A stretch of 64,000 nt of DNA from an uncultured bacterium. Lineage in GTDB: Bacteria > Omnitrophota > Gorgyraeia > Duberdicusellales > CBEUCJ01. The notes beneath the pieces are model-generated. The model saw only the letters and a program-made list of their open reading frames with translations. It had not been told where the DNA came from and searched no databases. Location of the stretch: the NCBI GenBank assembly GCA_965541615.1, contig CBEUCJ010000001.1:67754-131753 (forward strand). The letters are read 5' to 3'. A program made the translations under genes and the position numbers. Below, piece after piece: positions 5,151 to 27,135 of this stretch (positions are counted from its first letter, which is position 1; each line of letters starts with the position of its first letter).

Positions 5151-6147
5151 AGAAGAAGCTATCAAAAGTTTAGAGAGTGTAAAAGATTTAAAAGAGTTTC
5201 AAGAGGTCTACAGCAAATTTTTGGGAAGAAAAGCAGAATTGAATACCTTAATCAAAAATTTAAAAAATTTAGAACTCTCAGAAAGAAAAGAGATAGGCAA
5301 ATTAATCAACCAAACTAAAGACCTCTTAATAAAAGCTTTTGAAAATAAAAGAAAAGAATTAGAAAAAGAAGAAAAAGAAAAGATAGACTTAACTGAACCT
5401 GAAAACCTTCCTCTCTTAGGAGTAAAGCATCCTGTCTCTTTAATAATAGAAGAGATTGTAGATATTTTCAGGTCCTTAGGATTCAAAATTGAAGAAGGTA
5501 AAGAAATAGATACTGAATTTTACAATTTCACAGCTTTAAATATACCTTCAGAACATCCTTCAAGAGATGTTTTTGATACTTTCTATTTAGACCTTCCTCC
5601 TCAAAATAACTACAGATGGTTATTACGCTCTCATACTTCTCCTTCCCAAATCCATATACTCAAAAGAAAACAATTACCTGCAAGATTCATCTCACCTGGC
5701 AGAGTTTACAGACCAGAAAATTTAGATGCTTCACATTCCTTTATGTTCCATCAAATTGAAGGTTTTTATGTAGATAAAGATGTGAAATTCTCTCACTTAA
5801 AAGGTGTCTTAAATCTTTTTGCTAAAAAATTATTTGGCAAAAACACTGAGACCCGCTTTAGACCCCATTATTTTCCTTTTACTGAACCTTCAGTGGAAAT
5901 GGATGTAAGCTGTTTTTTTTGCAATAAAAAAGGGTGCAGTGTTTGTAAAAAAACAGGTTTTATAGAGATATTAGGAGCTGGTTTAATTCATCCTAATGTT
6001 CTAAAAGCCTGTGGTATTAATCCTAAAAAATGGAGTGGATTTGCTTTTGGACTAGGAATAGAAAGAATAGCTATGCTCAAGTTTAAGATTTCAGATATCA
6101 GATATTTTACAGATAACGATATAAGATTTTTAAATTCTTTTGTATGA
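5125..6147 (+). CDS. pheS: phenylalanyl-tRNA synthetase alpha subunit
   Basis: 340 aa. HPSRDVFDTFY, FRPHYFPFTEPSVEMDV and GAGLIHPNVL are class II PheS motifs. The start may be a downstream Met, since the annotated ATG overlaps the rplT end by 26 nt. Confidence 0.85.
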   Translation: MKEQILKIKEEAIKSLESVKDLKEFQEVYSKFLGRKAELNTLIKNLKNLELSERKEIGKLINQTKDLLIKAFENKRKELEKEEKEKIDLTEPENLPLLGVKHPVSLIIEEIVDIFRSLGFKIEEGKEIDTEFYNFTALNIPSEHPSRDVFDTFYLDLPPQNNYRWLLRSHTSPSQIHILKRKQLPARFISPGRVYRPENLDASHSFMFHQIEGFYVDKDVKFSHLKGVLNLFAKKLFGKNTETRFRPHYFPFTEPSVEMDVSCFFCNKKGCSVCKKTGFIEILGAGLIHPNVLKACGINPKKWSGFAFGLGIERIAMLKFKISDIRYFTDNDIRFLNSFV

Positions 6148-8162
6148 AAGCACCTTTAAATTGGTTAAAAGACTATATAAATTTAGAAGAAGATATTAAT
6201 GTTTTATGTGAAGCTCTAACTTTTGCAGGTATAGAAGTACTTTCTTTAAATAAATCAGATTCTGATGTCTTATTTGAGCTAGAAATCACTCCTAACAGAG
6301 TAGATCTTTTAAGTATATATGGTATTTGCAGAGAGTTATCTTGCATTTTAAACAAGAATCTAAAAAAGATTCAACCTCCTTCTTATACAAAAAAGATAAA
6401 TGTAGACATAAAAATTCAAAATTTTTCTGATTGTCCTTTCTACACTCTAAGAATATTTGAAGATGTAAAAGTAACTGAGAGTCCTGGTTTTATAAAAGAT
6501 AGATTGAGTAAGATGGGTTTAAATTCCATAAACAATGTAGTAGATATTACAAACTTTTGTTTATTTGAATTAGGACAACCTTTACATGCTTTTGATTTAG
6601 ACAAATTAAAACTTCCTTTGATAGTAAGAAGAGCCTCACATGGTGAAAGATTGTTAGCTTTAGATAACAAAGAATATGAATTAAATCCTGAAATTTTAGT
6701 AATAGCTGATAGTCAGAAACCTATAGCTATAGCAGGAGTCATTGGAGGATTAGAAACATCTGTGACTCCTCAAACTAAAAGGATTCTTTTAGAGAGTGCT
6801 TACTTTAATCCTATTTTAGTAAGGAGAGCAAAAAGACTCTTAGGAATTGAGACTGAATCTTCTTATAGATTTGAAAGAGGAGTAATTCCTTATTATGTAG
6901 ATTTTGCATCGAGAAGATGCTCGCACCTATTTGAAAAATTTTGTTTTGCAAAATTTAAAGGATTTAAATCTGTAGGGAGATTAAAAATCTCTCATAAAAA
7001 GATACCTTTAGATATCGATCTTTTAAATAAAAGATTGGATTTAAATTTAAAAAAATCTGAAGTATCTAAAATCTTAAAAAGATTAAAATTTAAATTTACT
7101 CAAAAGAATAACAAAATTTATGTATATACTCCTGAATTTAGGAAAGATATAAACATACCTGAGGACTTAATAGAAGACGTAGCCAGAATCTACGGATATA
7201 AAAATATAAAAGATAGAATTCCTTCAAAAGAACCCTCAATAGAAAAAAAAGACTTTTTTGAATTTAAGCAAAATATCAAAAACATCCTTATAGAAAAAGG
7301 ATTCTATGAATTAATAACTTTTTCTTTAACCTCTGAAAAAACATTAAAAGATTTAGGAATATTTTCTGAAAATTTAATAAAACTAATTAACCCTTTAAGT
7401 CAAAAATATGTTTTTTTAAGAAATTCTTTATTGGCTGGACTATTAGAAAGAGCAAGTTTTAATCTCAACCAATATGCAGAATCTATAAGATTCTTTGAGA
7501 CCGCTCACATATACTATAAAGAAGAAAAGAATATTAAAGAAGAAGAGGTAATAGGCATTCTTTTAGGAGGAAAAAAATCTTTTTATTGGAAAGACAAAGA
7601 TAAAAACTTTGATTATTTCGATCTAAAAGGCATAGTTATTTATCTTTTAACAAAGTTAGGTATAAAAAATATAGATTTTAAAGAAAGGGAATTTCCTTTT
7701 TTTGAATTTGGAGCTCAAATTCTATTTAAAAAAGAATCTTTAGGGTTTATAGGAAAACTTTCTAAAAAAGTCTTGAAGAGTTTAGACATAAACAATATAG
7801 AGATTTTTTATTCAGAGTTAAGTTTAGAAAAATTATTTTCTAATTATAATGACAAAAAGGAATTTATACCTTTTTCTAAATTTCCTTTTACTTTTAGAGA
7901 TATTAGTTTCATAATAGATGAAAAGATAAAATTTGAAGAGATTAAAAAAGTGCTTTTTGAAAGAAAAGAAAAAGAACTAATCAAAGAGATAAGGCTCTTA
8001 GAGATCTACAAAGGCAAAGAGATTCCTAAAAATAAAAAATCTCTTCTTTTAAGAATCTTTTTTCAATCTTTCTCTAGAACTTTATCTTCTGAAGAGATTG
8101 AAGAAATAGTCCTTAAAATGAAAGAAGACTTAAAAGAAAAATTCTCTGCTCAAATAAGATAA
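6144..8162 (+). CDS. pheT: phenylalanyl-tRNA synthetase beta subunit (short form, 672 aa)
   Basis: Overlaps the pheS stop (ATGA). B3/B4 and B5 regions and a C-terminal FDBD-like domain. Position after pheS. Confidence 0.8.
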   Translation: MKAPLNWLKDYINLEEDINVLCEALTFAGIEVLSLNKSDSDVLFELEITPNRVDLLSIYGICRELSCILNKNLKKIQPPSYTKKINVDIKIQNFSDCPFYTLRIFEDVKVTESPGFIKDRLSKMGLNSINNVVDITNFCLFELGQPLHAFDLDKLKLPLIVRRASHGERLLALDNKEYELNPEILVIADSQKPIAIAGVIGGLETSVTPQTKRILLESAYFNPILVRRAKRLLGIETESSYRFERGVIPYYVDFASRRCSHLFEKFCFAKFKGFKSVGRLKISHKKIPLDIDLLNKRLDLNLKKSEVSKILKRLKFKFTQKNNKIYVYTPEFRKDINIPEDLIEDVARIYGYKNIKDRIPSKEPSIEKKDFFEFKQNIKNILIEKGFYELITFSLTSEKTLKDLGIFSENLIKLINPLSQKYVFLRNSLLAGLLERASFNLNQYAESIRFFETAHIYYKEEKNIKEEEVIGILLGGKKSFYWKDKDKNFDYFDLKGIVIYLLTKLGIKNIDFKEREFPFFEFGAQILFKKESLGFIGKLSKKVLKSLDINNIEIFYSELSLEKLFSNYNDKKEFIPFSKFPFTFRDISFIIDEKIKFEEIKKVLFERKEKELIKEIRLLEIYKGKEIPKNKKSLLLRIFFQSFSRTLSSEEIEEIVLKMKEDLKEKFSAQIR

Positions 8163-8236: not shown

Positions 8237-8425
8237 GAGAGATTTAAAGTTCTCTTTGAAAAATATCCCTGCCCTGTTGGTTGGGAAAAAGGCGCCTGCG
8301 CCAACACCATTTTTGAGGGAGCCTGCGTTCTCCTTGACTGTGGTCAAGGAGACAGGGCACCCACCTGTATGAGGATAGGGCTTGCAGTGGCAGCTTTTCC
8401 CAACGGCAGGGTGGGGATATTTTTA
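8237..8425 (+). ncRNA. candidate structured small RNA (6S/SsrS-like) or structured 5' leader of rarA
   Basis: About 150 nt at roughly 60% GC in an otherwise ~28% GC genome. A long closing helix pairs cctgccctgttgg (8268-8280) with ccaacggcaggg (8401-8412); only cctgcc/ggcagg and gttgg/ccaac are complementary, and neither strand's full span rcs to the other. Internal hairpins include ctccttgac-tgtg-gtcaaggag. The element ends in a T-run (atatttttattttt) and is preceded by a strong promoter. A 5-formyl-THF cyclo-ligase gene (the classic ssrS neighbour) lies about 1.2 kb downstream. Confidence 0.4.
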
Positions 8426-8430
8426 TTTTT

Positions 8431-9669
8431 ATGCAAAAAATACCCCTCCATCTAAGAATCAGACCCCAAAATTTAGAAGAGTTTATAGGCCAAGAACATT
8501 TTTTAGGTGAGAATAAGTTTTTAAGGAAGTTAATTAAAGAAGATAGATTAACTTCTTTAATATTTTATGGTCCACCAGGTGTAGGTAAAACTACATTAGC
8601 TTTATGTATTAAAAATGAAACTCAAAGTTATTTTTCTTATATAAATGGAGCTGATTCCAATTTAGAAAAATTAAAATCTGAAATAAATTTAGCAGAATTT
8701 AGATTTAAACAGACCCACAAAAAAACTATTCTCTTTGTAGATGAAATCCATCATTTCAATAAAAGACAGCAAGATATATTCTTGCCTGTATTAGAAGAAA
8801 ATTTCTTAATCTTAATTGGAGCTACTATTCACAATCCTTTTTTTTATCTAATCAGTCCACTCTTATCTAGGGTAACTGTTTTGGAATTTAAACCTTTCTC
8901 AAAAGAAGAGATACTAAAAATCCTAAAAAGAGCTTTAAAAGATGAAAGAGGATTAGGAAAAGAAAAGATAGAAATAAAAGAAAAAGTCTTAGAATTTATA
9001 GCTGAAAATTGTGAAGGAGACGCAAGGAAAGCTTTAAATATCTTGGAGTTAGCTTTTCTGATTTCAAAAGATAAAGAAAAAACTATCTTAACTTTAGAAT
9101 CTGTAAAAGAAGCTATGCAGAAAAAAGTTATTTATTACGATAAAGATGAAGACTATCATTATGATTTAACATCTGCTTTAATAAAATCTATTAGAGCCTC
9201 AAAACCCGATGCTGCAATCTATTATTTGGCTAAAATGTTAGAGGGAGGTGAATCTCCTCTTTTTATTGCAAGAAGATTAGTAATCAGTGCTTGTGAAGAT
9301 ATAGGTCTAGCTGATCCTTTTGCTCTGGTATTAGCCTCAGCTTGTGCTCAAAGTGTACATTTTGTAGGCATGCCAGAAGCTGAGCTCATATTAGCTGAGA
9401 CTGTAATTTATTTAGCAAAGGCTAAAAAATCTAATAGTGCTCTTCAAGCTCTTTTGAAAGCTAAAGAAGATATAAAGAATGAAAGAACTCAAGAAGTCCC
9501 TCAACATTTAAGAGATTCTCATTATAAAGGAGCTAAAATCTTAGGGCATGGAACTGGTTACAAAAATCCTCATTTTTTTAAGAATGTATCTCAAGAATAT
9601 TTACAAATTCCTAAAAAGTATTATAATTTCCAAGAAAATGATAAAGGTAAAGAGCAAAGAGAAGATTAG
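8431..9669 (+). CDS. rarA: replication-associated recombination protein A (AAA+ ATPase RarA/MgsA)
   Basis: 412 aa. Walker A GPPGVGKTTLA, Walker B ILFVDEIHHFNK, and a C-terminal MgsA_C-like region (PDAAIYYLAKMLEGGESPLFIARRLVISA). Confidence 0.85.
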   Translation: MQKIPLHLRIRPQNLEEFIGQEHFLGENKFLRKLIKEDRLTSLIFYGPPGVGKTTLALCIKNETQSYFSYINGADSNLEKLKSEINLAEFRFKQTHKKTILFVDEIHHFNKRQQDIFLPVLEENFLILIGATIHNPFFYLISPLLSRVTVLEFKPFSKEEILKILKRALKDERGLGKEKIEIKEKVLEFIAENCEGDARKALNILELAFLISKDKEKTILTLESVKEAMQKKVIYYDKDEDYHYDLTSALIKSIRASKPDAAIYYLAKMLEGGESPLFIARRLVISACEDIGLADPFALVLASACAQSVHFVGMPEAELILAETVIYLAKAKKSNSALQALLKAKEDIKNERTQEVPQHLRDSHYKGAKILGHGTGYKNPHFFKNVSQEYLQIPKKYYNFQENDKGKEQRED

Positions 9670-17283: not shown

Positions 17284-18551
17284 GAGTAAGATTTGCACCT
17301 TCACCTACAGGTTTTTTACATATAGGCACAGCAAGGACTGCTCTTTTCAATTATGTGTATGCTAAAAGAAACAATGGAAAGTTCATTTTAAGAATAGAAG
17401 ATACAGATTTTAAAAGATCAAAACCTGAATTTCTGAATGAGATTTTAGATTCCTTAAAATGGTTAGGATTAGAACCTGATGAGATTTACTTTCAATCTGA
17501 AAGATTAGATATCTACAAAAAGTATGCACAAAAATTAGTAGATGAAGGTAAAGCTTTTTTAAAAGAAGGAGCTATAGTTTTTAAATATGAATTTCAAGAA
17601 GTTACATTTAAAGATTTAATTAGAGGTAAAATAAAATTCACAGAACTCCCAAAATCTGAAGAAGTCCTAATCAAAAGTGATGGAACTCCTACTTATAATT
17701 TTGCCTGTGTAATAGATGATGCACTTTTGGAAATAAGTTGTGTAATAAGAGGAGATGATCACATCTCTAACACTCCCAAACAAATTCTTCTATACAAAGC
17801 TTTAGGTTTTAAAATTCCAGAATTTGCACATTTGCCTATGATATTAGCAGAAGAAGGTGGTAAACTCTCAAAAAGAAAGGGAGCAGTTTCCATCAGAGAA
17901 TTCAGAGAACAAGGTTTTTTAGCTGAAGGAATTTGTAATTATCTTTTATTGTTAGGTTGGTCTCCAAAAAATAATCAAGAGATTATAACTTTAGAAGAGG
18001 CTATAAAGATATTTGATTTAAAAGATGTAAAAAAGACAGCAGCTACCTTTTCTATAGATAAATTAAAATGGGTAAATCAAAATCATATTAGAAAGAAAAG
18101 CACTCAAGAATTAAAAGAACTGTTAAAACCATTTTTAGAAAAGGAAAAAATAAATACTTCTGATTCTTATCTTGAAAAGGTTATCAGTTTATTTAAAGAA
18201 AGAATAAAAACTTTAAAAGATTTTTTAGAGTATTCAAAATATTTCTTTGTTGATACATTTGAGTTTGAAAAAGAAGCTTTAGAATTATTAAAGAAAAATT
18301 TAAAAAACGAATTTACTCTTTTAATAGAAAGGTTTAAAAATCTCTCAGATTTTAGAGCTCCTTTAATTGAAAAAGAATTCAGAGAGTTAGTAGCAGAATT
18401 GAATATAAAAGCAAAAGATTTAATCCATCCTGTAAGAGCAGCTTTATCTGGAAAAAGAATAGGACCTTCCTTATTTGAAATGATAGAAGTTTTAGGAAAA
18501 GATAGAGTTATAAAAAGATTAGAAAGAGCAAAAGAATTCATGGAGGTGTAA
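17268..18551 (+). CDS. gltX: glutamyl-tRNA synthetase (short, 427 aa)
   Basis: VRVRFAPSPTGFLHIGTARTALFNY (HIGH region) and LSKRKG (KMSKS). It is immediately followed by tRNA-Gln. Confidence 0.9.
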   Translation: MGNSVRVRFAPSPTGFLHIGTARTALFNYVYAKRNNGKFILRIEDTDFKRSKPEFLNEILDSLKWLGLEPDEIYFQSERLDIYKKYAQKLVDEGKAFLKEGAIVFKYEFQEVTFKDLIRGKIKFTELPKSEEVLIKSDGTPTYNFACVIDDALLEISCVIRGDDHISNTPKQILLYKALGFKIPEFAHLPMILAEEGGKLSKRKGAVSIREFREQGFLAEGICNYLLLLGWSPKNNQEIITLEEAIKIFDLKDVKKTAATFSIDKLKWVNQNHIRKKSTQELKELLKPFLEKEKINTSDSYLEKVISLFKERIKTLKDFLEYSKYFFVDTFEFEKEALELLKKNLKNEFTLLIERFKNLSDFRAPLIEKEFRELVAELNIKAKDLIHPVRAALSGKRIGPSLFEMIEVLGKDRVIKRLERAKEFMEV

Positions 18552-18554
18552 AAA

Positions 18555-18692
18555 ATGAAGTTCTTTTTAATCTTAATTTTGATCTTATCTTTGACAGGCT
18601 GCGGAACTATAAAAGGTCTTGTTGAAGGAATGAAATCTGACTATCAAAAACTCAAAGAGATAGATAAGTGGTTTCAAGAACACTACTGGTAA
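18555..18692 (+). CDS. small predicted lipoprotein (45 aa), not in the ORF track
   Basis: MKFFLILILILSLTGC: signal peptide plus lipobox L-T-G-C. The size and lipobox resemble entericidin-like small lipoproteins. Too short for confident calling. Confidence 0.35.
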   Translation: MKFFLILILILSLTGCGTIKGLVEGMKSDYQKLKEIDKWFQEHYW

Positions 18693-18700
18693 GAATCTTT

Positions 18701-18771
18701 TGCCCGGTGGTGTAACGGTAGCACCCCAGGCTCTGGACCTGGTAGTCGTGGTTCGAATCCACGCCGGGCAG
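18701..18771 (+). tRNA. tRNA-Gln (anticodon CTG)
   Basis: Acceptor tgcccgg/ccgggca (U1-A72, typical of tRNA-Gln), anticodon stem ccagg/cctgg with loop ctCTGga, T-arm gtggttcgaatccac. Confidence 0.85.
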
Positions 18772-19184
18772 GTTTTCCTCTAACTGAAGTATAAATATTG
18801 ATGATTCATCAACCAGCCTTTTGTTATTTGCTCCTTTCACAAAAAAGTATAGCTTCTTTCAATGACGTAGATTTTAAATATACTTTAGATAATTAGGAAT
18901 AAGTATGTCCATAAAGGTAAATGTAGTCTTTTATGTTTCAAAAAGGGGATGAATAAATATAGAAATAGAAAAAGAATACAATTTACTTATAAATTTGAGA
19001 AGTTTATTAATTCTATAGATGAGAGAGATTTAATGGATTTAAATAGACATTTGGATTGTTTATAGATTACTTAACTTTCTTGAAATAAATAATAAATAGA
19101 TATTGGCTTAACAAAGTAAAAGCATATTTTAGAAATATTTATGGTTAAATAAAATTTATGTTATAATTCTAAATGGAGGCTAAT

Positions 19185-19571
19185 ATGCAAGTAAAACCTA
19201 TAGTAAAAGCTTTTCTTATTGCAGATAAAGTTATGCGAGAGGAAGGGACTAAAAAGTGGAGTGTGATAGGTATATTTGACCGGATTTTTTCTAAAAATTT
19301 CCCTTGTATCCACCCAAGTTTAGCCTTATATATTAGATTAAGTAATGCAGAAGGTGAGTATAACGTTAAAATTGAGTTTTGTGAAATAGATGGGAAAGTT
19401 TTATCTCTATTCGAAGGAAAACTTAAGGTAGGTTCCAGATTAGCCACTCCAGAAATTGGGATTCAGACTTATAACCTTCCTTTACCAAAACCAGGGAGAT
19501 ATTTATTTAAGTTATATCTTAATGATGAATTTATTCAAGATTTTCCTATAGATGTTGTTCAAATAAAGTGA
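19185..19571 (+). CDS. hypothetical protein (128 aa); first gene of a tRNA-Gln-adjacent cassette
   Basis: GGAGG RBS 5 nt upstream of the ATG at 19185 (the ORF-track start at 19173 lies inside the RBS). A candidate -10 (tataat) sits at about 19163. No family recognised by eye. Predicted mostly beta. Confidence 0.5.
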   Translation: MQVKPIVKAFLIADKVMREEGTKKWSVIGIFDRIFSKNFPCIHPSLALYIRLSNAEGEYNVKIEFCEIDGKVLSLFEGKLKVGSRLATPEIGIQTYNLPLPKPGRYLFKLYLNDEFIQDFPIDVVQIK

Positions 19572-19587
19572 AAGGAGGTAATACATT

Positions 19588-19935
19588 ATGAGTCCAAAAT
19601 TGGAAATTAAAACAGAATTTATTCAGTCAGAAAAAAGTGGTGTTTCTTTAATTGAAGATATTTGGCAGACGCCAGCTACATATTTAATTAACAGATTAGG
19701 AAGAACTCCTCAAGTCAGATTAATAGGAGATAGATATTACCCAGAATATTTGCAAACTATTGTAGTTTTAGAAGACGATCCAGAAGGACTATTAGATAAA
19801 ATTTTTTCTATTGAAGTAGAGATGAGAAAAAAATTTAAGAATATAAACTTTGATCTTCGTGTTTGTGTAATTACTTCTGAAGAAGAAATAGAAAAGATGA
19901 AACAGGGACTTCTTATCCGATATGAACGAGTATGA
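19588..19935 (+). CDS. hypothetical protein (115 aa)
   Basis: Strong AGGAGG RBS 7 nt upstream. No recognisable motif. Confidence 0.5.
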   Translation: MSPKLEIKTEFIQSEKSGVSLIEDIWQTPATYLINRLGRTPQVRLIGDRYYPEYLQTIVVLEDDPEGLLDKIFSIEVEMRKKFKNINFDLRVCVITSEEEIEKMKQGLLIRYERV

Positions 19936-20398
19936 CTTCAGTAGAGGAGGAGTTGAGAAGTATTTTAGATTAATTGAACATGATTTAAAGCTATTAGATT
20001 TGCTTACAGAAAAATATCCATCTCATCTTGAAAAAGAAGATTTTTCTGACTGGATAGTAACTACTTTATTTTATATAGCATGTATTTATTTAAAAGCTTT
20101 ATTCAGATTGTATGGCGAAGATATTCAAAGTCATTATGCCTTGAAACAACAATTGTATGCAAGAAAAGAATTATTTCAAATCATAAAACCTTACAGACAT
20201 TTGGAAGAAGCAAGCAGAGATGCTCGTTATGAAGGGAGGGTCTTTTCTTCTGATTATATTATAAATAGACTTTATCCTAAATTTAAAATAGTGCGTGATT
20301 GTGTTGTTGAGCTGTTCAACAAAAATAGAATTTTTAATATTCCTCAAGTTGATCCCTTACCATTTTTAAAAAGATTAGAGAAACGAAGTATTTCTTAA
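19922..20398 (+). CDS. hypothetical alpha-helical protein (158 aa)
   Basis: Overlaps the previous gene by 14 nt (translational coupling). Arg-rich segment RHLEEASRDARYEG. No confident family assignment. Confidence 0.5.
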   Translation: MNEYDFSRGGVEKYFRLIEHDLKLLDLLTEKYPSHLEKEDFSDWIVTTLFYIACIYLKALFRLYGEDIQSHYALKQQLYARKELFQIIKPYRHLEEASRDARYEGRVFSSDYIINRLYPKFKIVRDCVVELFNKNRIFNIPQVDPLPFLKRLEKRSIS

Positions 20399-20479
20399 AT
20401 GAGAGTTATTTCTTGAATACTCAAATCGCACACTTGAATAAAATTTTAGCTAAAAAAGAATTAACTTCTTGAAATTTCG

Positions 20480-20542
20480 TTAATTACGATTATACTGAGA
20501 ATCGTAATTAAAAGAGAAATTAATTACGGATAGTGTAATTAT
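20480..20542. repeat. tandem imperfect palindromes TTAATTACGAT-N8-ATCGTAATTAA and AATTAATTACGG-N5-GTAATTAT
   Basis: Read directly: a perfect 11-bp inverted repeat at 20480-20490 / 20501-20511, plus a degenerate second copy at 20518-20542. The region is a 300-bp convergent intergenic gap. Confidence 0.5.
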
Positions 20543-20698
20543 AAGGAGCGGAGTTCAGATTCAATAATTTCAATACAAATAATTTAATCAAAAAATTTCT
20601 GAAATGGGGAATACTTAAAGAATGGGACGAAAGAGAAATAGAGTTTTCTTTTATGAAGAGTATCTGAATTTATTTTATTAGAAAGAACAAAAAGAAGA

Positions 20699-21184
20699 CT
20701 ACTTTATAAATCTTCCGTCGTCTTTTGTTTTATTTAATTTAAATATATTCTTTTTAAGCCAGCCAATTCTTTCTACTTCTCTTATATCAAATTGAGGAAC
20801 ATAAGGTTTTATATCTAAAAGAGGAGTTTTATCTACAATATCTACATCCTCTATATAAAGAATATTTTTTCTAATTTTAAGAAGACGTACTACTGAAATA
20901 CCAATAGGATTAGGACGAGAAGGAGCACGTGTAGCAAATATTCCATGGAATCTTTTATCCATAAATGGTTTTACTTTTAATTTACAGCCTTTGGTAAGAT
21001 GGAAATGATAAATTAAGATAATATGAGAAAAACCACCCAAGTCTTTTAAAGCTTCTTTATATTCAGAAAATACTTCCACTTTTCCTTTAATACCTTCTGC
21101 TGCTTGAGGCTGAATAGGAACACCTTTAGGTTCTTTAAAAGGAGAGTAAATTATCCCAATTGGTTTATATATTATCTCCTTCAT
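20699..21184 (-). CDS. tsaA: tRNA (N6-threonylcarbamoyladenosine) methyltransferase TsaA / YaeB-like
   Basis: 161 aa. PIGIIYSPFKEP...FSHIILIYHFH...RPNPIGIS...DIKPY is the YaeB/TsaA family pattern. Confidence 0.7.
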   Translation of the reverse strand: MKEIIYKPIGIIYSPFKEPKGVPIQPQAAEGIKGKVEVFSEYKEALKDLGGFSHIILIYHFHLTKGCKLKVKPFMDKRFHGIFATRAPSRPNPIGISVVRLLKIRKNILYIEDVDIVDKTPLLDIKPYVPQFDIREVERIGWLKKNIFKLNKTKDDGRFIK

Positions 21185-21330
21185 CTTTAATTTAATTTTA
21201 TACTACACACAAAAATTTCAAAATCATAATTTTAAAACTAAAAATTAATTTCTCTAAAAATCACTTCAGTAAGATTTCCTTACTTGACAGACTCCTTACT
21301 GTATGATACTTTTGGAATGGAGGTGAGAAA

Positions 21331-21567
21331 ATGCTTTGCAAGAAAACCAGTAAAAACCAGATAACTTTACCTAAAAAAATTGTAGAACGATTTAAAGATG
21401 TAGAATATTTTGAAGTAGAAGCGCAAGAAAATAAGATTATTCTAAAACCTGTCAAAATAGAACCAATAAAAAATATCTCCTTAACCAAAATTAGAGAGAA
21501 AATGGCTTCCTTAGGCATTACTGAAGAAGATATTGAAAAGGCAATTTTCTGGGCAAGAAGTAAATAG
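21331..21567 (+). CDS. AbrB/MazE/SpoVT-type antitoxin
   Basis: 78 aa. NQITLPKKIVERF is the swapped-hairpin AbrB/MazE DNA-binding motif. Its stop abuts the start of a PIN-domain gene. Confidence 0.6.
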   Translation: MLCKKTSKNQITLPKKIVERFKDVEYFEVEAQENKIILKPVKIEPIKNISLTKIREKMASLGITEEDIEKAIFWARSK

Positions 21568-22002
21568 ATGAAAAAATTAAGAGTAGTAATAGATACAAAT
21601 GTATTCATATCAGCAATTCTTTTCAAAGGATACCCAGCTAAGTTGGTCGATCTATGGAAAAAAAATTTTTTAAAAATTTTAATTTCTAAAGAAGTTTTAG
21701 AAGAGTACATAAAAGTCCTCTCTTATCCTAAGTTTCAACTCTCAAAAGAAGAAATAAAGTATATAATAGAAAAAGAACTGCTACCTTCTGCAGAAGTAAT
21801 AAAAGTTAAATCAAAAATCAACCTCATAAAAGAAGATAAAGAAGACAATAAATTCCTTACTTTAGCTTTGGAAGGAAATGCTCACTACATTATAAGTGGA
21901 GATAAACATCTTCTCAAACTAAGAAAACTTCATAAAATACCAATAGTTACAATAAAAGAATTTTTAGAAAAAGTTAAATATAAAATGAAATCAGCCAAAT
22001 GA
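21568..22002 (+). CDS. PIN-domain toxin (PIN_3 / TIGR00305-like VapC family)
   Basis: 144 aa. VVIDTNVFISA (first acidic residue), DNKFLTLALE and IISGDKHLL are conserved PIN acidic positions. Confidence 0.65.
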   Translation: MKKLRVVIDTNVFISAILFKGYPAKLVDLWKKNFLKILISKEVLEEYIKVLSYPKFQLSKEEIKYIIEKELLPSAEVIKVKSKINLIKEDKEDNKFLTLALEGNAHYIISGDKHLLKLRKLHKIPIVTIKEFLEKVKYKMKSAK

Positions 22003-22035
22003 TTGCAGGTAAATGTAAAGTAAAATTAATTAAAA

Positions 22036-22752
22036 TTAATAAACTTCTAAAGCTACTCTATTTAACTCTATCTGAATCAGAACAACTGCCAAAGGCCAGC
22101 AAACTAAATACAAAAGGGTCCAGAATCTAGGGGTGTTGTCTTTTTTAATCTGTAAAGAGAAGATCTCAAAGTATTTGTATAAAAAATAGAGAGTTGTGAA
22201 AGGGTTTATTAAATATAAAAATCCTGGTAACTCTGTTCCTGTAAGTTCTAATTCTTTCTTTGTCTTCATAAGCCACCAAAGATGATAAATCCCCAAACTC
22301 AGAATACTAAATATTAATACTAAAAATGGATTTCTTTCTTTTACTCCCAAGATTTTTCCTTCATTAATAGGTAACTTTTTAAACTCTTTTAGAAAAATGA
22401 AAAAACCTAATATAAAGATTATAACTCCTAAAATAAAAATACCTGGTATTAAAATCTTTTCTTCAAAATTAACAAAACTCGCCAAAATCCCCAAAAGCCA
22501 TAAAAAAAATCCTAAAGAAATAAATAAACTAGTCACCAGAATCTTCCTTTTTTCTGATTCTGCTGAAAATTTTGCTACTTGAATGAAGATAATACCTATC
22601 CCCAAAGCAAACATAGTTACTATAAAATCTCTTATTGTGAAGTTTAAAAAAAGCATTATAACCCCTATAACACCTGCAGATAAAAAAATGATCCCTAAAA
22701 ATCCCAAAATCATACCTGCCAGTACTTTTAAGACTTCTTTTATCTCTTTCAT
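22036..22752 (-). CDS. polytopic membrane protein with a C-terminal DUF4234-like region
   Basis: 238 aa, about six hydrophobic helices. GIYHLWWLMKTKKEL resembles the DUF4234 motif. Confidence 0.45.
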   Translation of the reverse strand: MKEIKEVLKVLAGMILGFLGIIFLSAGVIGVIMLFLNFTIRDFIVTMFALGIGIIFIQVAKFSAESEKRKILVTSLFISLGFFLWLLGILASFVNFEEKILIPGIFILGVIIFILGFFIFLKEFKKLPINEGKILGVKERNPFLVLIFSILSLGIYHLWWLMKTKKELELTGTELPGFLYLINPFTTLYFLYKYFEIFSLQIKKDNTPRFWTLLYLVCWPLAVVLIQIELNRVALEVY

Positions 22753-23094
22753 TTATTTAAAAAAGATGGGTTCTAAATATTCTGTCCAGATAAATAAAAA
22801 GACAGGGCCTAAAAGATAAAGGAGTAAGAAGACAAAAAAGAACTTTAACTTAGATTGTGAAAAAACAATACCCAAAATACTCAAAAAAATAGCACTTATA
22901 CCGAGCATAAGAGAACCTATGAGTCCTACTCTTTTGTACAGAATTATAAGAGGTAGATAAATGATTCTAAATATTTCAAATAATTTTTCTTCTTGGTCTA
23001 CACTTAAAGTAAAACGTAAAGAAAAAAATAAAACTCCAATTAAAAAAATAAAGATGAGAATAGAAATCAAATTCAATTTAAATCTCTTACCCAT
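22753..23094 (-). CDS. small membrane protein (113 aa)
   Basis: Three or four hydrophobic helices. Its start is adjacent to the downstream membrane gene. No family recognised. Confidence 0.4.
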   Translation of the reverse strand: MGKRFKLNLISILIFIFLIGVLFFSLRFTLSVDQEEKLFEIFRIIYLPLIILYKRVGLIGSLMLGISAIFLSILGIVFSQSKLKFFFVFLLLYLLGPVFLFIWTEYLEPIFFK

Positions 23095-23142
23095 ATAAAT
23101 TAAATTTTACTCTAAAAATTTTTATAAGTAAAATGTTTAAAT

Positions 23143-24168
23143 ATGGAAAAGTTCTTAAAAGTGGGCAAGATAAAAGTCTATCTTGTATGGTTCGATTCTA
23201 TGAAAGCTAAGTCTTCTGCTGTTTTTATCCAAACACCAGATGTAAAGATCCTCATAGATCCAGGAGCAGCTGTAATGCAGAACTCATATCCTTTGTCTAA
23301 TAAAGAAAAAGAATTTTTCAAAAAAGAAGCTTTAAAAAGAATAGAGTCTTTTTCTAAAAAATCTGATATTATAATCATTACTCATTACCATTATGACCAC
23401 CATACTCTTCCTACAAAAAAGTCAAACTTTTATGAACAAAAAACTTTATTTATAAAAGATCCTAATAAATGGATAAATAGATCTCAATTTTTTAGAGCAA
23501 GAAAATTCCTAAAGAGATTAGCAAATTTAAACAAAGTAAAGTTTAAAAACATATTAGAATCTCCTAAAAAATTAGAGTTTTATGACCCAGTTGAAGATTT
23601 GAAATTTAAAGAGGTAGATAAAAAACAACTCAAAAAAGGTAAAAAATGGCTAAAAGATTTATTTAAACTTTGGAATAAAGAAATGAGTGTTTGTGAGTGG
23701 TCTAAAAACAAAACTTCTGTTTACTTTGCAGATGGAAAAAAAGTAACTTTTAAAAACACACAGATATCATTTTCAGAACCTTTATTCCATGGAATAGAAT
23801 ATGATAGATTAGGCTGGGTAATAATGGTAAATGTTGAATATAAAGATAAAAAAGTCCTCTACACTTCAGATTTACAAGGTATTCCTATTAAAGATTATGC
23901 TCAAAAGATAATTGAGATTAACCCTGATTTATTAATAGCTGATGGACCTGCAACATATCTCTTAGGCTATTTATTAAATCAAAAAAATTTAGAAAGAGCT
24001 ATTGAAAATACTTCTTATATAATTAAAAATATAAAAGCTAAAACGATCATTTATGACCACCATCTATTAAGAGATTTAAACTACAAACAAAAAGTAGAAA
24101 AAATTTATAAGACAGCTTCTAATCTTGGAAAAAAGGTCTTAACTGCTCTTGAATTCTTAGAAGGGTAA
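23143..24168 (+). CDS. MBL-fold metallo-hydrolase (UPF0282-like)
   Basis: 341 aa. IIITHYHYDHH is the beta-lactamase-fold HxHxDH zinc motif. Confidence 0.6.
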   Translation: MEKFLKVGKIKVYLVWFDSMKAKSSAVFIQTPDVKILIDPGAAVMQNSYPLSNKEKEFFKKEALKRIESFSKKSDIIIITHYHYDHHTLPTKKSNFYEQKTLFIKDPNKWINRSQFFRARKFLKRLANLNKVKFKNILESPKKLEFYDPVEDLKFKEVDKKQLKKGKKWLKDLFKLWNKEMSVCEWSKNKTSVYFADGKKVTFKNTQISFSEPLFHGIEYDRLGWVIMVNVEYKDKKVLYTSDLQGIPIKDYAQKIIEINPDLLIADGPATYLLGYLLNQKNLERAIENTSYIIKNIKAKTIIYDHHLLRDLNYKQKVEKIYKTASNLGKKVLTALEFLEG

Positions 24169-27135
24169 ACCAAAACTTAAATGAAATTTTTCTCTCTTTC
24201 CTTCTTTAACTGGACCTAACTTAATCCCTAAGTCTAATCTTAAAAATCCCCATTTTGTTCTATATCTCAATCCTAAACCAGTCCCACATTTTAATCTTGA
24301 AATCTTAAATTCCTTAGGTTTATTTGTCAAAAAACCTGTATCAAAAAATAAAGCTCCATACCATTTTTTGTAAATAGGGAACCTAAACTCTGAATTTAAA
24401 ATCCCATAGAATCTTCCACCTAAAGGAAGGTTATCTTTATCTAAGAGATCTGCTCTCCTCCCTTTATAACCTCTTATACTACTTGAACCACCTATAAAAA
24501 ATTTCTCAAAGAATGGTATTGTCTGAAAATCTCCTATTTTATCTTCATATCCTAATTTATTTCTTAAAACAAACACTCTTTCTTTCTTTAAATCCCAATA
24601 AAATCTATTTTCAAATTCTATTTTATAAAAATTTGCATCTGAACCTAAAGCTGAATCTGATAAGTTAAAATTGATTACAGAGTAACTTCCTTTTGTAGGA
24701 TAAATCTTATTATCTAAGGTATCTCTTATAATCTTTAAATTCAAAAAATTGATTTGAGATCTTGGCTGATATTTTTTTAAACTTAAAGGTGCTTTAAAAG
24801 AAACTTTATTTATTGAGTACTCATTAAAACTAAATCCTATTTTTAACTTTGTAAATTTTAAAATTTGAGCACCTAAATAAAAATCCAATGAAAAATTAGT
24901 TTTTAAACTATATCTTTTATCTTTTTCCCATCTCCCTTTGAATACAATTCCACAAAATAGAGGTGAGTTAAATATTTCTTTTTTCTCAAAACCTAATCTT
25001 ATTTTTTTCTCATACTCAGAATACTTACCTCCTGCTATGAGTTTAATATTTTTAAAATGATAACTTAAATTCAGTTTGTTATAAGCTGTCATTCTTAATC
25101 TTAAAGTTTTCTTGGTATCTTTTAAAAAATTCAGAATCTTTTCTTCTATAAAACCTAAAAAAACTATAGAACTTAAATGTCCTGATAAAAGCCAATAGGA
25201 TTTTTTACAATTTAAAGCTCTTTGAAATTCTAATACACATTTTCTTGGGATGTACCTATCAAAGATAGCATTTATCATCAATATTTTTTTATCCTTTAAC
25301 TTATAAGCAAAATTTAAAGGATCTAAAACTTTTAATTCATTTAAGATCTCTGGTGCAAGTTCTTTTTTTACTTTATATTTTTTAGAAATAGTGCTCTTTA
25401 AAAGTAATTCTTTTAAATCAGCTCCTCCTAAAATAAATATCCCTGAATCTATATCCTCTCTTAACTCTAAAACTCTTTCACTAACTATACTCCCTAAACT
25501 TACTCCACCTAAAGTGATTTTAGCTGTGAATTCCTTTTCTTTTAGCCAGTCCAATATATTTTGAGCTTCAAACAAGAGTTCTTTAATTAAATCTAAATAT
25601 ATTAGAAAAATAATATCTTTTTTTCTCCTTATTTTTTTGTATTTGCGATAATCTTTTTGAAATCCTGTCTGAAAAGTTAAAAACCCAATGTCATTTTGAG
25701 CTAAAAATTTTCCTAACTCTCCTTCTATATTCTTACTCACTCCTCTTGAATGTGGAATAAAAACTAAAAATGGAATCTTTTCTTTGGCTTCTAAAGGTAA
25801 GTAACAATATATGTATATACTTTTATCAGGCAATCTATTTTTTATTTTTGGGATATAAAAATATATTAATTTTTTATAAAAAGGAGTTTGTAATTCCTTT
25901 ATCAATTTAGGAGAAATCTTTTCTGATCTTTTTAAACTTATTTTTTTATAAACTTTCTCTTTATAATCTTTAAATACACTTTTTAAAGAAAATCTTACGT
26001 ATTCTTTCTCTTTAACAGAATAAATAAAAAATTCCTTTTTTGAAGGAATAAAGACTATACTTTGCAAGAGATGATTTGAATAAAAAGGCTTAGCCCTCAA
26101 AATTTTAAAGATATCTTTTAAAGAAAACTTATCTTTACTTTTTATAAACTCTTTAAATTTCTTAAGTCTTTTATAAGAAGAAGTATTCTCTAATTTAGTA
26201 TTAGGATAAACTTTCTTCATCGTCTTAAATAATTCTTTTGAAAGATAATGGTTTACACTTACTAAATAATTATCTTTTGGAAAAAGTATTTGATATCTTT
26301 TGCCTGTAAATTCAATTAGTGCAGCTTTCTTATTTTTTTCACAAATAGTTATTGTGAAGCCTGCTATTCTTTTTGAAGAGATTACTTTTCCAATAGCTTC
26401 TTCTAAACTCTCAGAATTTTGAATTAGTTCTCTTAATAGAAACATAATCGGTATTCCTGTGCGATTTAATTCACTAGTTCCCACCCCTGTCTCAGAAACA
26501 GAGATTCCTTTTGCATTCATTGCACTTAAAACTCCACACATTCCAGGCCATCCAATAGAAACAAAAGGTACACCTTTTTTTGGCATAAAAAAGAAGATTA
26601 CTTGGTTTTCTACTAAACCCTGTGGGGGCACAAAACCTAAATCTCTACCATGAAAAAGTAAAGCTTCTTTTGTAATCTTAGGCATCAGTACAATATTCGT
26701 GCAAGTCTTTTTCTTCCTCAAAAAACTCAAAGTATCCAAAAAAGTATGCATCATTAATATTTTTGAATAACTTAACCCTGAACCTTTTGCTATCCCTATT
26801 ATTTCTTTCCTTAATTCTTTAGGGATGTATCTTTGGTACAAAAAAGCTTTAAATTTGAAATAATTCCAAAGGATAAACCTTTTAAGTTTAGATTTTATCT
26901 GTTTTTTTAAAAATGTATTTAAAAAATAATCTCTATAAAGCTGATTTATTTCTTTTCTTAATAAGACTCCTTGCTGATAACCCATCTCAAAGCTATCCCC
27001 TTTAAGATACACTATTTTAAAACCTGCTCTTTCTTCTAAATGGGCTTTTTTTAAAATCTTATAGAAATCTTGATGACAATTTAAATTTTTAAAAAATGAA
27101 AGGAAAATAATAAAGAAAAATATCTTTGCCTTCAT
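24157..27135 (-). CDS. 992-aa predicted outer-membrane protein fusing a C45 Ntn-hydrolase domain, an alpha/beta-hydrolase domain and an Omp85/Bac_surface_Ag beta-barrel
   Basis: N-terminal signal peptide (MKAKIFFFIIFLSFF). About aa 40-400: GDSFEMGYQQG, the autoproteolytic TCTNIV site and FHGRDLGF match the C45 acyl-CoA:6-APA acyltransferase/peptidase family. About aa 430-690: FLVFIPHSRG, the GVSLG nucleophile elbow and LSGHLSS match an alpha/beta hydrolase. About aa 700-992: FIGGSSSIRGYKGR and ALFFDTGFL are the Bac_surface_Ag (PF01103) motifs, and the protein ends in ...FGLPF. Confidence 0.7.
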   Translation of the reverse strand: MKAKIFFFIIFLSFFKNLNCHQDFYKILKKAHLEERAGFKIVYLKGDSFEMGYQQGVLLRKEINQLYRDYFLNTFLKKQIKSKLKRFILWNYFKFKAFLYQRYIPKELRKEIIGIAKGSGLSYSKILMMHTFLDTLSFLRKKKTCTNIVLMPKITKEALLFHGRDLGFVPPQGLVENQVIFFFMPKKGVPFVSIGWPGMCGVLSAMNAKGISVSETGVGTSELNRTGIPIMFLLRELIQNSESLEEAIGKVISSKRIAGFTITICEKNKKAALIEFTGKRYQILFPKDNYLVSVNHYLSKELFKTMKKVYPNTKLENTSSYKRLKKFKEFIKSKDKFSLKDIFKILRAKPFYSNHLLQSIVFIPSKKEFFIYSVKEKEYVRFSLKSVFKDYKEKVYKKISLKRSEKISPKLIKELQTPFYKKLIYFYIPKIKNRLPDKSIYIYCYLPLEAKEKIPFLVFIPHSRGVSKNIEGELGKFLAQNDIGFLTFQTGFQKDYRKYKKIRRKKDIIFLIYLDLIKELLFEAQNILDWLKEKEFTAKITLGGVSLGSIVSERVLELREDIDSGIFILGGADLKELLLKSTISKKYKVKKELAPEILNELKVLDPLNFAYKLKDKKILMINAIFDRYIPRKCVLEFQRALNCKKSYWLLSGHLSSIVFLGFIEEKILNFLKDTKKTLRLRMTAYNKLNLSYHFKNIKLIAGGKYSEYEKKIRLGFEKKEIFNSPLFCGIVFKGRWEKDKRYSLKTNFSLDFYLGAQILKFTKLKIGFSFNEYSINKVSFKAPLSLKKYQPRSQINFLNLKIIRDTLDNKIYPTKGSYSVINFNLSDSALGSDANFYKIEFENRFYWDLKKERVFVLRNKLGYEDKIGDFQTIPFFEKFFIGGSSSIRGYKGRRADLLDKDNLPLGGRFYGILNSEFRFPIYKKWYGALFFDTGFLTNKPKEFKISRLKCGTGLGLRYRTKWGFLRLDLGIKLGPVKEGKREKFHLSFGLPF

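Follow-up and report, generated by a model that had tools for sequence, protein, structure and literature searches.

Within a 64,000-nucleotide stretch of a contig from an uncultured Omnitrophota bacterium (hereafter the window), a run of housekeeping genes ends at tRNA-Gln and is followed by three tightly packed small genes. A sequence-only reading had found no family for any of the three proteins, and had suggested that the genes were inserted next to the tRNA and might constitute a novel defence or abortive-infection islet. We asked what the three proteins are, whether the genes travel together and what they might do.

Gene layout and expression signals

The basic arrangement, a three-gene cassette 3′ of tRNA-Gln behind an AT-rich gap, was confirmed with ARAGORN, the ORF list and GC content. 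The tRNA-Gln gene (anticodon CTG; 18700-18772, + strand; 61 bits in Rfam) closes a conserved block of gltX, a small lipoprotein gene and tRNA-Gln, and the same arrangement is found in gltX relatives. Approximately 410 nt of AT-rich non-coding DNA separate the tRNA from the start of gene A at 19185. Between 18773 and 19185 there was no ORF of at least 40 aa beyond obvious shadows, and the largest, a 38-aa ORF at 18949-19065, was rejected as a gene since it had no spaced ribosome-binding site and was not conserved. The spacer at 18773-19150 had a GC content of 0.23-0.24, compared with ∼0.28-0.33 nearby, and neither blastn nor blastx found a homologue of these 378 bp in any fetched locus. We regard this segment as specific to the host lineage and outside the conserved module. 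An Rfam search over 18000-22000 returned the tRNA as its sole match and no conserved RNA element.

All three genes lie on the + strand at the starts first proposed, as the ORF list and the sequence confirmed: gene A at 19185-19571 (128 aa, DUF6941), gene B at 19588-19935 (115 aa, acidic alpha/beta) and gene C at 19922-20398 (158 aa, predicted HEPN fold), with B and C overlapping by 14 nt and the module measuring ∼1.2 kb. The ORF of gene A has an alternative upstream start at 19173. We assigned it 128 aa because GGAGG is located 5 nt before the ATG at 19185, a start that also agrees with the N-termini of its homologues. Strong GGAGG ribosome-binding sites had been ascribed to the whole cassette, and this was correct for A and for B, which is preceded by AAGGAGG, but not for C. 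The AGGAGG near C (19941-19946) falls within the ORF, past the only in-frame ATG, so that C probably depends on coupling to B for its translation. An extended −10 promoter element, TGtTATAAT, was read at 19159-19167 (+ strand). It is identical in locus L097, a 91%-identical copy of the triad with different flanks in another genome, where the DNA further upstream is unrelated; the element is thus carried with the module. A consensus promoter scan upstream of gene A produced only a weaker site at 19128-19155. A, B and C form one operon with its own extended −10 promoter and with Shine-Dalgarno sites before A and B.

The coding signal of the three ORFs was clear on two grounds. Homologues of all three were present at 40-60% identity in other phyla, and comparison with the 91%-identical L097 copy yielded dN/dS ratios of 0.074 for A and 0.065 for C, indicating purifying selection.

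The HEPN-like protein and its two partners

The AF2 model of C (pLDDT 93.6) contained helices at residues 3-29, 42-63, 82-103 and 110-134 and a shorter one at 71-80, and it showed the four-helix up-and-down bundle of HEPN domains. Its top Foldseek match was the HEPN protein AF_0298 (2hsb; probability 1.00, TMt 0.73), and further HEPN chains dominated the top of the list (1ufb, 1wol, 3o10, 7bxo, 5yep and 4nqf), with weak E-values throughout (best 0.02). Against the Pfam HEPN family PF05168, C scored 16.1 bits and missed the gathering cut-off of 22; this profile matched 19 of the 31 C family members at E ≤ 1, again below threshold, with 2.5e-4 as the best value. Neither the single protein nor the family profile had a sequence match in the PDB. 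The search for HEPN, nucleotidyltransferase or Abi folds that the sequence-only reading had recommended thus identified C as HEPN-like and left B without a match. Its statement that no family could be recognised did not hold, given that A belongs to Pfam DUF6941 and C is a sub-threshold member of PF05168.

The Arg-rich patch noted earlier in C proved to be exactly the HEPN motif region, as judged from the alignment, the model and the published description of the superfamily (PMC3710099). Codons 91-106 (Y-R-H-L-E-E-A-S-R-D-A-R-Y-E-G-R; 20192-20239, + strand) were invariant or nearly so, and in the model this block falls in helix 82-103 and loop 104-109. Across 31 sequences the invariant polar residues were K58, H71, R92, E95, E96, S98, R99, D100, R102, Y103 and E104, and the block S98-R99-D-A-R102-Y103-E104-G105-R106 is situated at the HEPN motif position (PMC3710099). 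The canonical Rx4-6H motif was absent: C has R99-x4-E104 instead, with E104 at +5 and no His after R99, and C could therefore be a non-catalytic binding domain. In AF0298-like HEPN-T proteins and AbiV, the motif Arg is kept, the His has given way to another residue, often an acidic one, and a further conserved His is found N-terminal to the motif in an insert between helices 2 and 3 (PMC3710099). C displays this variant, having R99, E104 and an invariant His71 (codon 20132-20134, + strand; 31 sequences). In the AF2 model this candidate alternative catalytic His opens the short helix 71-80, which is inserted between HEPN helices 2 and 3, and its proximity to R99 is putative. On the strength of the model we assign C to the AF0298/AbiV type of HEPN fold, and we predict it to be an RNase effector.

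Gene A passed the gathering threshold of Pfam DUF6941 (PF22091; E = 1.4e-23, 84.1 bits versus a cut-off of 27) over profile positions 2-124 of 125, and the domain was carried by all 43 of its close homologues (43/43). When the A family profile was compared with the PDB, the matches were non-significant (E 0.4-2) and nearly all to Ig-like or other beta-sandwich domains; A, rich in beta strands, probably folds as an Ig-like sandwich. A is conserved at least as much as C and is under strong purifying selection, which is unusual for a dispensable accessory and counts against a toxin-antitoxin-like reading of the operon. DUF6941 is a large family (3,676 clusters), and its fusions give no functional hint because the longer DUF6941 proteins have no second Pfam domain. 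Most DUF6941 contexts examined had no adjoining toxin-antitoxin genes. At one locus, L095, a DUF6941 gene overlaps by 8 nt a 77-aa gene, antitoxin-like and unrelated to the triad, which is followed by a ParE_toxin gene. This order suggests that the domain may be a reusable accessory of toxin-antitoxin pairs, a link to ParE that comes from this single locus. The L095 protein had no match in PLSDB plasmids by tblastn. Searches of the available literature produced nothing relevant on DUF6941/PF22091 or on three-gene or tripartite HEPN systems.

B had no match in Pfam, NCBIfam or PDB sequences, and its profile retrieved only chance matches from the PDB (GCN4 adaptor helices). Its AF2 model (pLDDT 73.6) has a disordered stretch at residues 1-25 and the topology a-b-b-a-b-a-b, for which Foldseek returned no significant fold match, no known antitoxin fold and no MNT nucleotidyltransferase. 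The only PADLOC-DB v2.0.0 matches of B were to Csx1 (E = 0.0026, 16 bits) and E2 (E = 0.021). B is acidic (median pI 4.8, net charge −8.7) and the least conserved of the three genes. It had no detectable relatives outside the A-B-C operon, and in all 11 loci its gene was flanked by those of A and C. We predict B to be the antitoxin or a partner of C.

Distribution, flanks and mobility

The A-B-C order was intact in all 11 distinct loci with an intact C (11/11), with short gaps or small overlaps between the genes, and the sources included Firestonebacteria, Omnitrophota and Brocadiaceae/Planctomycetota. The module was present in 6 of 185,579 species-representative genomes and the neighbourhood differed at every locus, bearing out the expectation of an accessory, sporadic and mobile unit rather than a syntenic core. 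Transposases (IS66, DDE_3, DDE_Tnp_1 and DUF772), toxin-antitoxin pairs and defence-type genes were found beside A-B-C loci. Besides the transposases, the neighbours included Rep_1, a weak NikA-like match, BrnT/CopG, HigB, RmuC, a CapP/ImmA-like peptidase and genes resembling PsyrA/DprA, SIR2 and Cas4 (PD-(D/E)XK). These distributions indicate that the operon is passed on whole among uncultivated bacteria that are only distantly related.

Searches of defence and virus collections were negative. In PADLOC-DB v2.0.0, A and C had no match and the 31 C homologues had no recurrent match, so that the proposed check for a known defence system gave no usable match for any triad member. NCBIfam and PHROGs yielded no usable match for the three proteins, the A and C profiles found no relatives in IMG/VR, and A and C had no tblastn match in GenBank phages or PLSDB plasmids. 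The proposal of a defence or abortive-infection islet was therefore upheld in part. The mobility, the transposase, toxin-antitoxin and defence neighbours and the HEPN fold agree with it, but PADLOC, PHROGs, IMG/VR, phages and plasmids supplied no match. As there is no direct tie to phage defence, this role stays a plausible reading of context and fold.

Comparison with L097 also clarified the DNA around the module. The copies in the two genomes are 89-96% identical in amino acids, compared with 56% for the next syntenic gene. Homology by blastn starts at 19151, and the flank upstream of it is unrelated. TrmO is within the shared high-identity block (94% amino acid identity). In the window this TrmO/tsaA tRNA methyltransferase gene occupies 20699-21184 on the − strand (Pfam TrmO_N, E = 1.4e-41), convergent with the triad. 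Past it lies a MazE/AbrB-PIN pair (21331-22002, + strand; Pfam), as the sequence-only reading had stated for a toxin-antitoxin pair downstream of the cassette.

The interval 20399-20698 had been described as a palindrome-rich gap. The palindromes are real, but the comparison with L097 revealed the scar of a deleted Fic gene rather than a plain spacer. The scar of this Fic-family gene (20545-20698, + strand) was delineated by blastn and alignment against L097, whose counterpart gene has Pfam Fic_N+Fic, and by tblastn of the 103-aa L097 product. The 5′ stub has ATA in place of the ATG start codon, the 3′ stub is at 20584-20687, and ∼880-980 bp present in L097 have been lost; an AATAATT microhomology marks the junction. 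Two TTAATTACG-based palindromes at 20480-20543 (RNA fold z = −2.9) consist of a perfect 12-bp stem (20480-20511) and an imperfect one (20521-20543). A promoter-like site found by promoter scan (20469-20496) overlaps them, and L097 retains both immediately before its Fic gene. They could be the operator/promoter of the lost Fic gene, the terminator of the triad, or both; a terminator scan found none.

The position directly 3′ of tRNA-Gln invites the view that the cassette is a classical island, inserted by an integrase into the 3′ end of the tRNA gene. In gltX relatives this flank is indeed variable: various small cassettes, an IS element and toxin-antitoxin genes occur there, and some of these relatives have tRNA-Leu only 20-50 nt after tRNA-Gln. 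When metagenomes were scanned for gltX, no close relative of the host emerged, and the best match had 61% amino acid identity. However, no integrase or recombinase gene was present among the ORFs at 18773-24200. The expected direct repeat of the tRNA 3′ end was not found, the only nearby resemblance being 76% identity over 25 nt inside gene C. The L097 copy does not adjoin tRNA-Gln and is homologous only from 19151, and the 378-bp spacer is without a homologue in the fetched loci by blastn and blastx. Site-specific integration at the tRNA is thus largely refuted, and we consider it highly improbable.

A candidate tripartite HEPN module

HEPN-T proteins of the AF0298-like type (PF05168, 2hsb; PMC3710099) include the best structural match of C and represent its only recurrent Pfam family, at sub-threshold scores, and they deviate from the canonical motif in the same way: Arg kept, His replaced by an acidic residue, second His in the helix 2-3 insert. 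C differs in having an extra C-terminal segment of ∼25 aa, and in its partners: HEPN-T proteins typically stand alone or are paired or fused with a minimal nucleotidyltransferase, whereas C accompanies an orphan alpha/beta protein and a DUF6941 protein. AbiV, like C, is a small HEPN protein. It is reported in a preprint to have RNase activity, so that this HEPN variant can be catalytic. The AbiV system has two components with an RNA antitoxin, whereas in the triad two protein genes precede the HEPN gene and no conserved RNA was found; neither C nor its family had a match among PADLOC models bearing the name AbiV or Abi. Type VII HepT-MntA resembles the triad in having a partner gene upstream of, and overlapping, a HEPN gene of ∼140 aa, and HepT/MNT complexes (7bxo, 5yep and 8xeh) were among the fold matches of C. 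Unlike C, HepT belongs to the DUF86/HEPN-M clade with a canonical Rx4HxY motif. Neutralisation in type VII needs an active nucleotidyltransferase, for which B has neither signature nor fold match, and the triad has a third gene. TAC (toxin-antitoxin-chaperone), HipBST and PaaR-PaaA-ParE also comprise three small co-transcribed genes of which the third modulates a pair. This is an analogy of architecture only: none of their components is homologous to the triad, A neither resembles SecB nor contains a recognisable DNA-binding domain, and the gene for the triad's third component comes first and is the best conserved of the three.

The operon has the generic architecture of type II toxin-antitoxin systems, with small coupled genes, the partner upstream and a patchy, mobile-linked distribution. 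We consider A-B-C to be a tripartite HEPN toxin-antitoxin-like module, with a probability of roughly 55%, and probably a toxin-antitoxin or defence system of three parts that has not been described before. The effector would be C, most likely as a dimeric RNase that halts growth whenever it is free. B would be its protein antitoxin, held at a fixed ratio by translational coupling and labile through its disordered N-terminus. A, as a third subunit, might sense the trigger or stabilise or regulate the B-C complex. The module may serve the addiction or stabilisation of mobile DNA, abortive infection, or both. Here we infer the toxicity, the RNase activity, the neutralisation by B and the role of A.

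A different reading of the same proteins, which we consider unlikely though deserving of weight, is a non-toxic RNA- or nucleotide-binding complex in which C is an inactive HEPN ligand- or RNA-binding subunit, comparable to sacsin or to HEPN domains fused with nucleotidyltransferases, and A-B-C is a regulatory or RNA-metabolism accessory. HEPN domains can be domesticated for binding or regulation (PMC3710099), and the lack of canonical Rx4-6H in C, the lack of any defence model match and the strong purifying selection on A are consistent with such a role. Inactive HEPN domains are, however, expected to be without conserved polar residues (PMC3710099), whereas in C eleven charged or polar residues are invariant and cluster at the motif position, in addition to the alternative His. 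The operon does adjoin the tRNA-modification gene TrmO in both the window and L097, but this adjacency was seen only in the host lineage, and a rare, patchy distribution in transposon, toxin-antitoxin and defence neighbourhoods is unlike that of a housekeeping accessory.

The overlap of C with an upstream partner gene, reminiscent of HEPN-MNT operons, and the closeness of C to the MNT-associated HEPN-T clade would also accord with a degenerate type VII-like system, in which B is a decayed MNT that binds the HEPN protein without AMPylation and A was added later. In the HepT of type VII systems the AMPylated Tyr is located within the motif, and C has the invariant Tyr103 beside its motif Arg. 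The pattern of B loosely recalls MNTs (a helix, 'VRFIGEK', 'DYLQxIVVxDDD', a helix and 'FDVRVRV'), and one BFVD match of B was to a Pol-beta NTase domain (E = 0.21). Against this, 10 B homologues had no NTP_transf_2, Polbeta or other nucleotidyltransferase Pfam match at E ≤ 5, and the best 50 PDB Foldseek matches of B contained no MNT chain, despite the many MNT structures that exist. In the B model a beta1-beta2 hairpin with a 4-residue turn takes the place of a helix found in NTases, the G-S/DxD signature is missing, and the divergent triad L099 has 'RYAV' instead of 'DYLQ'. Such a decayed origin is therefore quite improbable. B as an active MNT was rejected, as it has no nucleotidyltransferase Pfam match, fold match or G-S/DxD signature.

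The tripartite toxin-antitoxin-like reading admits a bolder extension, which we put forward tentatively. DUF6941 might be a general, hitherto unrecognised third component of toxin-antitoxin and abortive-infection systems, acting as a beta-sandwich sensor or adaptor for the licensing of various toxins (here a non-canonical HEPN RNase with an alternative H71/R99 active site, in L095 ParE), and the triad would then be a new tripartite anti-phage or anti-mobile-element family. If so, the family is so far confined to uncultivated Omnitrophota, Firestonebacteria and Planctomycetota and is absent from current defence catalogues.

Among toxin-antitoxin, Abi and CRISPR-ancillary systems, HEPN RNases recur as effectors. 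The module described here would be a new combination, in which a HEPN protein of the AF0298/AbiV type is joined by a protein partner that is not a nucleotidyltransferase and by a DUF6941 protein. It would provide a first functional context for DUF6941, and the orphan family B is a candidate for a new antitoxin fold. If the module is non-toxic, it would instead exemplify strong conservation of a non-canonical HEPN protein in a role outside defence. The lineages that carry it, among them Omnitrophota, anammox Planctomycetota and Firestonebacteria, have a defence repertoire that is almost unexplored.

Anatomy and conservation of the three-gene operon

The sequence-only reading had described tRNA-Gln, an ORF-free AT-rich gap and three packed small genes, and this anatomy was borne out by ARAGORN, Rfam, an ORF scan and GC content. 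The + strand gene run, which comprises three 2-oxoacid:ferredoxin oxidoreductase-like subunits, gltX and a 45-aa lipoprotein gene, is closed by tRNA-Gln(ctg) (18700-18772, +; ARAGORN and Rfam). In the following spacer (18773-19184) GC falls to 0.23-0.24 and the ORF scan found no credible ORF; the largest one, of 38 aa (MNKYRNRKRIQFTYKF...; 18949-19065), has neither a spaced ribosome-binding site nor a homologue and is probably not a gene. Neither blastn nor blastx against the fetched loci turned up a homologue of its 378-bp part at 18773-19150. Gene A (19185-19571, +) begins with an ATG at 19185, in agreement with the N-termini of its homologues, and has GGAGG upstream at 5-nt spacing. Gene B (19588-19935, +) is preceded by AAGGAGG, and gene C (19922-20398, +) overlaps B by 14 nt. 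The AGGAGG seen earlier near C turned out to be internal to the C ORF, so that translation of C presumably depends on coupling to that of B. An extended -10 element (TGtTATAAT, 19159-19167) lies upstream of A, within the block common to the window and L097, a locus carrying a near-identical relative of this copy. Elsewhere in the window, Rfam detected a 6S/SsrS RNA gene on the + strand (8263-8421; 69.5 bits).

All three genes are genuine, and together they make up a single conserved unit. For C, a search of 5.8 billion proteins gave 34 clusters of homologues. A single-sequence search with B retrieved only 3 homologues, and a second search, using an alignment of concatenated A and B sequences from related loci as the query, retrieved 43 homologues of A, all PF22091, and 8 more of B. 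When HMMs of the three families were scanned across every fetched locus, the A-B-C order on a single strand, with neighbouring genes either closely spaced or slightly overlapping, was observed at 11 of 11 distinct loci with an intact C. These are the window, L097/L098, Firestonebacteria (L001/L007), a JGI bin (L004), Scalindua japonica (L005), a 5.1-Mb ENA contig (L006), an Omnitrophota genome (L008), two Brocadiaceae (L009, L010), a Planctomycetota MAG (L011) and a divergent high-GC copy (L099). The dN/dS values relative to L097 were 0.074 for A and 0.065 for C. A decayed copy of C was also seen in a high-GC Planctomycetota MAG as a frameshifted remnant ('DYRKLEEASRR...'; L012, 8097-8345), with neither A nor B nearby.

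Genomic surroundings and mobility

The triad is mobile. The C family occurs in 6 of 185,579 species scanned with one genome per species, and the surroundings of the triad differ from locus to locus in every case. Its neighbours are IS66 and Rep_1 genes in L005, several DDE transposases in L006, a DUF772 transposase, a weak BrnT match and a CopG antitoxin in L008, RmuC and a SIR2-like gene in L004, weak NikA-like and Rep_trans matches in L010, and a Cas4-like PD-(D/E)XK gene, an HTH gene and a weak HigB match in L001. A further neighbour pair in L008 we take, from its sequence, to be DUF4160/DUF2442. In L011, a CapP/ImmA-like M78 peptidase gene and its truncated duplicate lie upstream (5753-7201), and a PsyrA/DprA-like gene downstream (8416-9075) shares 8 nt with the end of C. 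No triad copies were found in IMG/VR, GenBank phages or PLSDB plasmids.

The order gltX, lipoprotein gene, tRNA-Gln is kept in gltX relatives, and the content 3' of the tRNA differs among these relatives, all of them distant, so that this flank is variable. It consists of tRNA-Leu(gag) within 20-50 nt (L017, L035), two small genes (109 and 93 aa) with an IS element encoding a 412-aa transposase (L018, 6254-8645), an AbrB-type antitoxin with a 92-aa toxin-like gene (L016, 11550-12727), or 2.4 kb including glnS (L019). In L013 (9094-9442) it holds no real genes but a repeated sequence with two overlapping ORFs, both encoding 'GPNKVLRTFLLTQKLGS'. The lipoprotein gene (18555-18692), whose product has a signal peptide, a Cys and a C-terminal W..Q...W, occupies the same position in distant relatives (L013, 8673-8837; L016, 11296-11469). 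A search for a tRNA 3'-end direct repeat that might delimit an island returned none that was tRNA-derived, and an integrase is also absent. Because the flank is variable, these two hallmarks are missing and the spacer is homologue-less, we place the cassette in a variable region, with no demonstrable integration at the tRNA.

Comparison with L097 delimited the block more closely. Identity is 91% over 19151-20570, covering the -10 element, A, B, C and 170 nt beyond, and 92% over 20572-21179, at the convergent tsaA gene (TrmO; 20699-21184, -). No homology between the two loci was found left of 19151, where L097 carries a 100-aa gene, a 40-aa zinc-ribbon gene and a glycosyltransferase and lacks tRNA-Gln. 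The C-TrmO interval is ~980 bp longer in L097, which has a Fic-family gene (Fic_N+Fic, called as 268 + 103 aa) directly downstream of TTAATTACG palindromes. In the window, 20399-20698 retains a 5' Fic stub, whose ATG has become ATA, together with a 3' stub (20584-20687); the two meet at an AATAATT microhomology, with a promoter-like site and the palindromes just upstream of the lost gene. The palindrome-rich convergent gap reported earlier is therefore what was left when a Fic-family gene was deleted. Beyond TrmO, the window has ~3 kb extra (21185-24200), a second variable segment flanking that gene, with a MazE/AbrB-PIN pair, a DUF4234 membrane protein, a 113-aa membrane protein and an MBL-fold protein.

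In L097, TrmO directly abuts an Omp85-family gene whose counterpart lies at 24160-27087. Across L097 2053-8081, amino acid identity is 89-96% for the triad proteins and TrmO (window 19151-21184), whereas for this next syntenic protein it is only 56%, and the best metagenome gltX relatives, including those in the sample that gave L098, are ≤61% identical. With a single flanking gene as its basis, this step suggests that the triad-TrmO block was recently exchanged laterally between diverged genomes; it may instead reflect an unusually fast-evolving outer-membrane protein. Within the block, the middle of A (19271-19510) is 75-83% identical at the nucleotide level, against 97-100% in the promoter, at the 5' end of A and throughout B (dS 0.90 for A and 0.03 for B; dN/dS of A still 0.07). 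Such mosaic divergence has the appearance of a patch recombined in from a different triad allele.

Protein families and the predicted active site of C

The earlier statement that none of the proteins belongs to a recognisable family holds for B only. A is DUF6941 (84 bits, E=1.4e-23), a Pfam family with no mention in the literature searched. A profile search of 1.84 billion representatives gave 3,676 clusters at E≤1e-3 and just 12 at E≤1e-30; on the strength of L099, the one member near this cut-off that was checked, the 12 are presumed to be the triad subfamily. Nearly all clusters are stand-alone proteins of 130-150 aa, and longer members have no second Pfam domain. The broad profile gave only non-significant PDB matches, almost all of them Ig-like or other beta-sandwich domains (filamin repeats, BslA), a hint of such a fold. 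At L095 (804-1755; also L096), a DUF6941 gene of 145 aa and a 77-aa antitoxin-like gene share an 8-nt overlap, and a ParE_toxin gene comes next, with HTH_17 (excisionase-type) and DUF3854 genes nearby on one element. This second kind of DUF6941-led trio, at a single locus, supports an accessory role in toxin-antitoxin (TA) modules. Another DUF6941 gene adjoins an AP-endonuclease-2-family gene, and further ones have nothing suggestive adjacent; one neighbour, read off a partial ORF, may be an acetyltransferase.

B has no sequence relative in Pfam, NCBIfam or the PDB, and its family is acidic (median pI 4.8). Its AF2 model (pLDDT 73.6 overall, ~87 in the core) has an alpha-beta-beta-alpha-beta-alpha-beta topology with residues 1-25 disordered. 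Foldseek against PDB and BFVD returned nothing significant and no minimal nucleotidyltransferase (MNT).

C is modelled as an all-alpha bundle (AF2 pLDDT 93.6) that most closely matches, among PDB structures, the HEPN protein AF_0298 (2hsb; Foldseek probability 1.00, TM 0.60/0.73), followed by TT1696, ST0689, sacsin HEPN, HepT toxins and the ANT(4'') C-terminal domain. Pfam HEPN PF05168 matched 19 of 31 family members, below threshold. Invariant residues are K58, H71, Y91, R92, E95, E96 and S98 to G105 (S98, R99, D100, A101, R102, Y103, E104, G105). In the model, S98-R106 spans the junction between helix 82-103 and the loop leading to helix 110-134, and H71 is the first residue of a short helix that separates helix 42-63 from helix 82-103. 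The motif His is missing both from AbiV and from the AF0298 (2hsb) family, and an alternative active site could come from a second conserved His in a helix 2-3 insert; truly inactive HEPNs have been argued to be without conserved polar residues (Anantharaman et al., PMC3710099). C matches this description point by point, with R99-x4-E104, H71 in the insert and 2hsb as top fold match, and contrary to the inactive HEPNs it is rich in conserved polar residues. AbiV is reported to have RNase activity. C is therefore probably a non-canonical HEPN RNase, in which the proximity of H71 and R99 is presumed from sequence and secondary structure. C falls below the Pfam threshold and is without the canonical motif; it would work like the AF0298-like HEPN-T/AbiV group, to which it probably belongs as a divergent member.

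A proposed tripartite HEPN module and its alternatives

The best-supported model, to which we assign a probability of about 0.55, is a tripartite HEPN TA-like module. C would be an RNase effector, and potentially a toxin, acting through R99 and H71; B, acidic, partly disordered and translationally coupled, would be the protein antitoxin that neutralises it; and A may be a third subunit serving as sensor, adaptor or stabiliser. Behind this model stand the observed conservation and mobility, the fold of C and the placement of its motif in sequence and secondary structure, whereas the toxicity and RNase activity of C, its neutralisation by B and the role of A are predicted. The operon could instead encode a non-toxic binding complex, a much less likely reading.

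A degenerate HEPN-MNT pair is improbable: no test applied to B identified it as a nucleotidyltransferase, and the operon is therefore not type VII HEPN-MNT. Still more doubtful is a classical tRNA island, for which the tRNA-Gln flank offers a variable position but neither integrase nor tRNA-derived repeat. Nor is the triad AbiV, since that system consists of two components and uses an RNA antitoxin. PADLOC matched the triad to no defence-system model. We classify the triad as a putative HEPN-toxin module with two new partners; it is small, amenable to testing and previously undescribed, with an effector of a familiar class.
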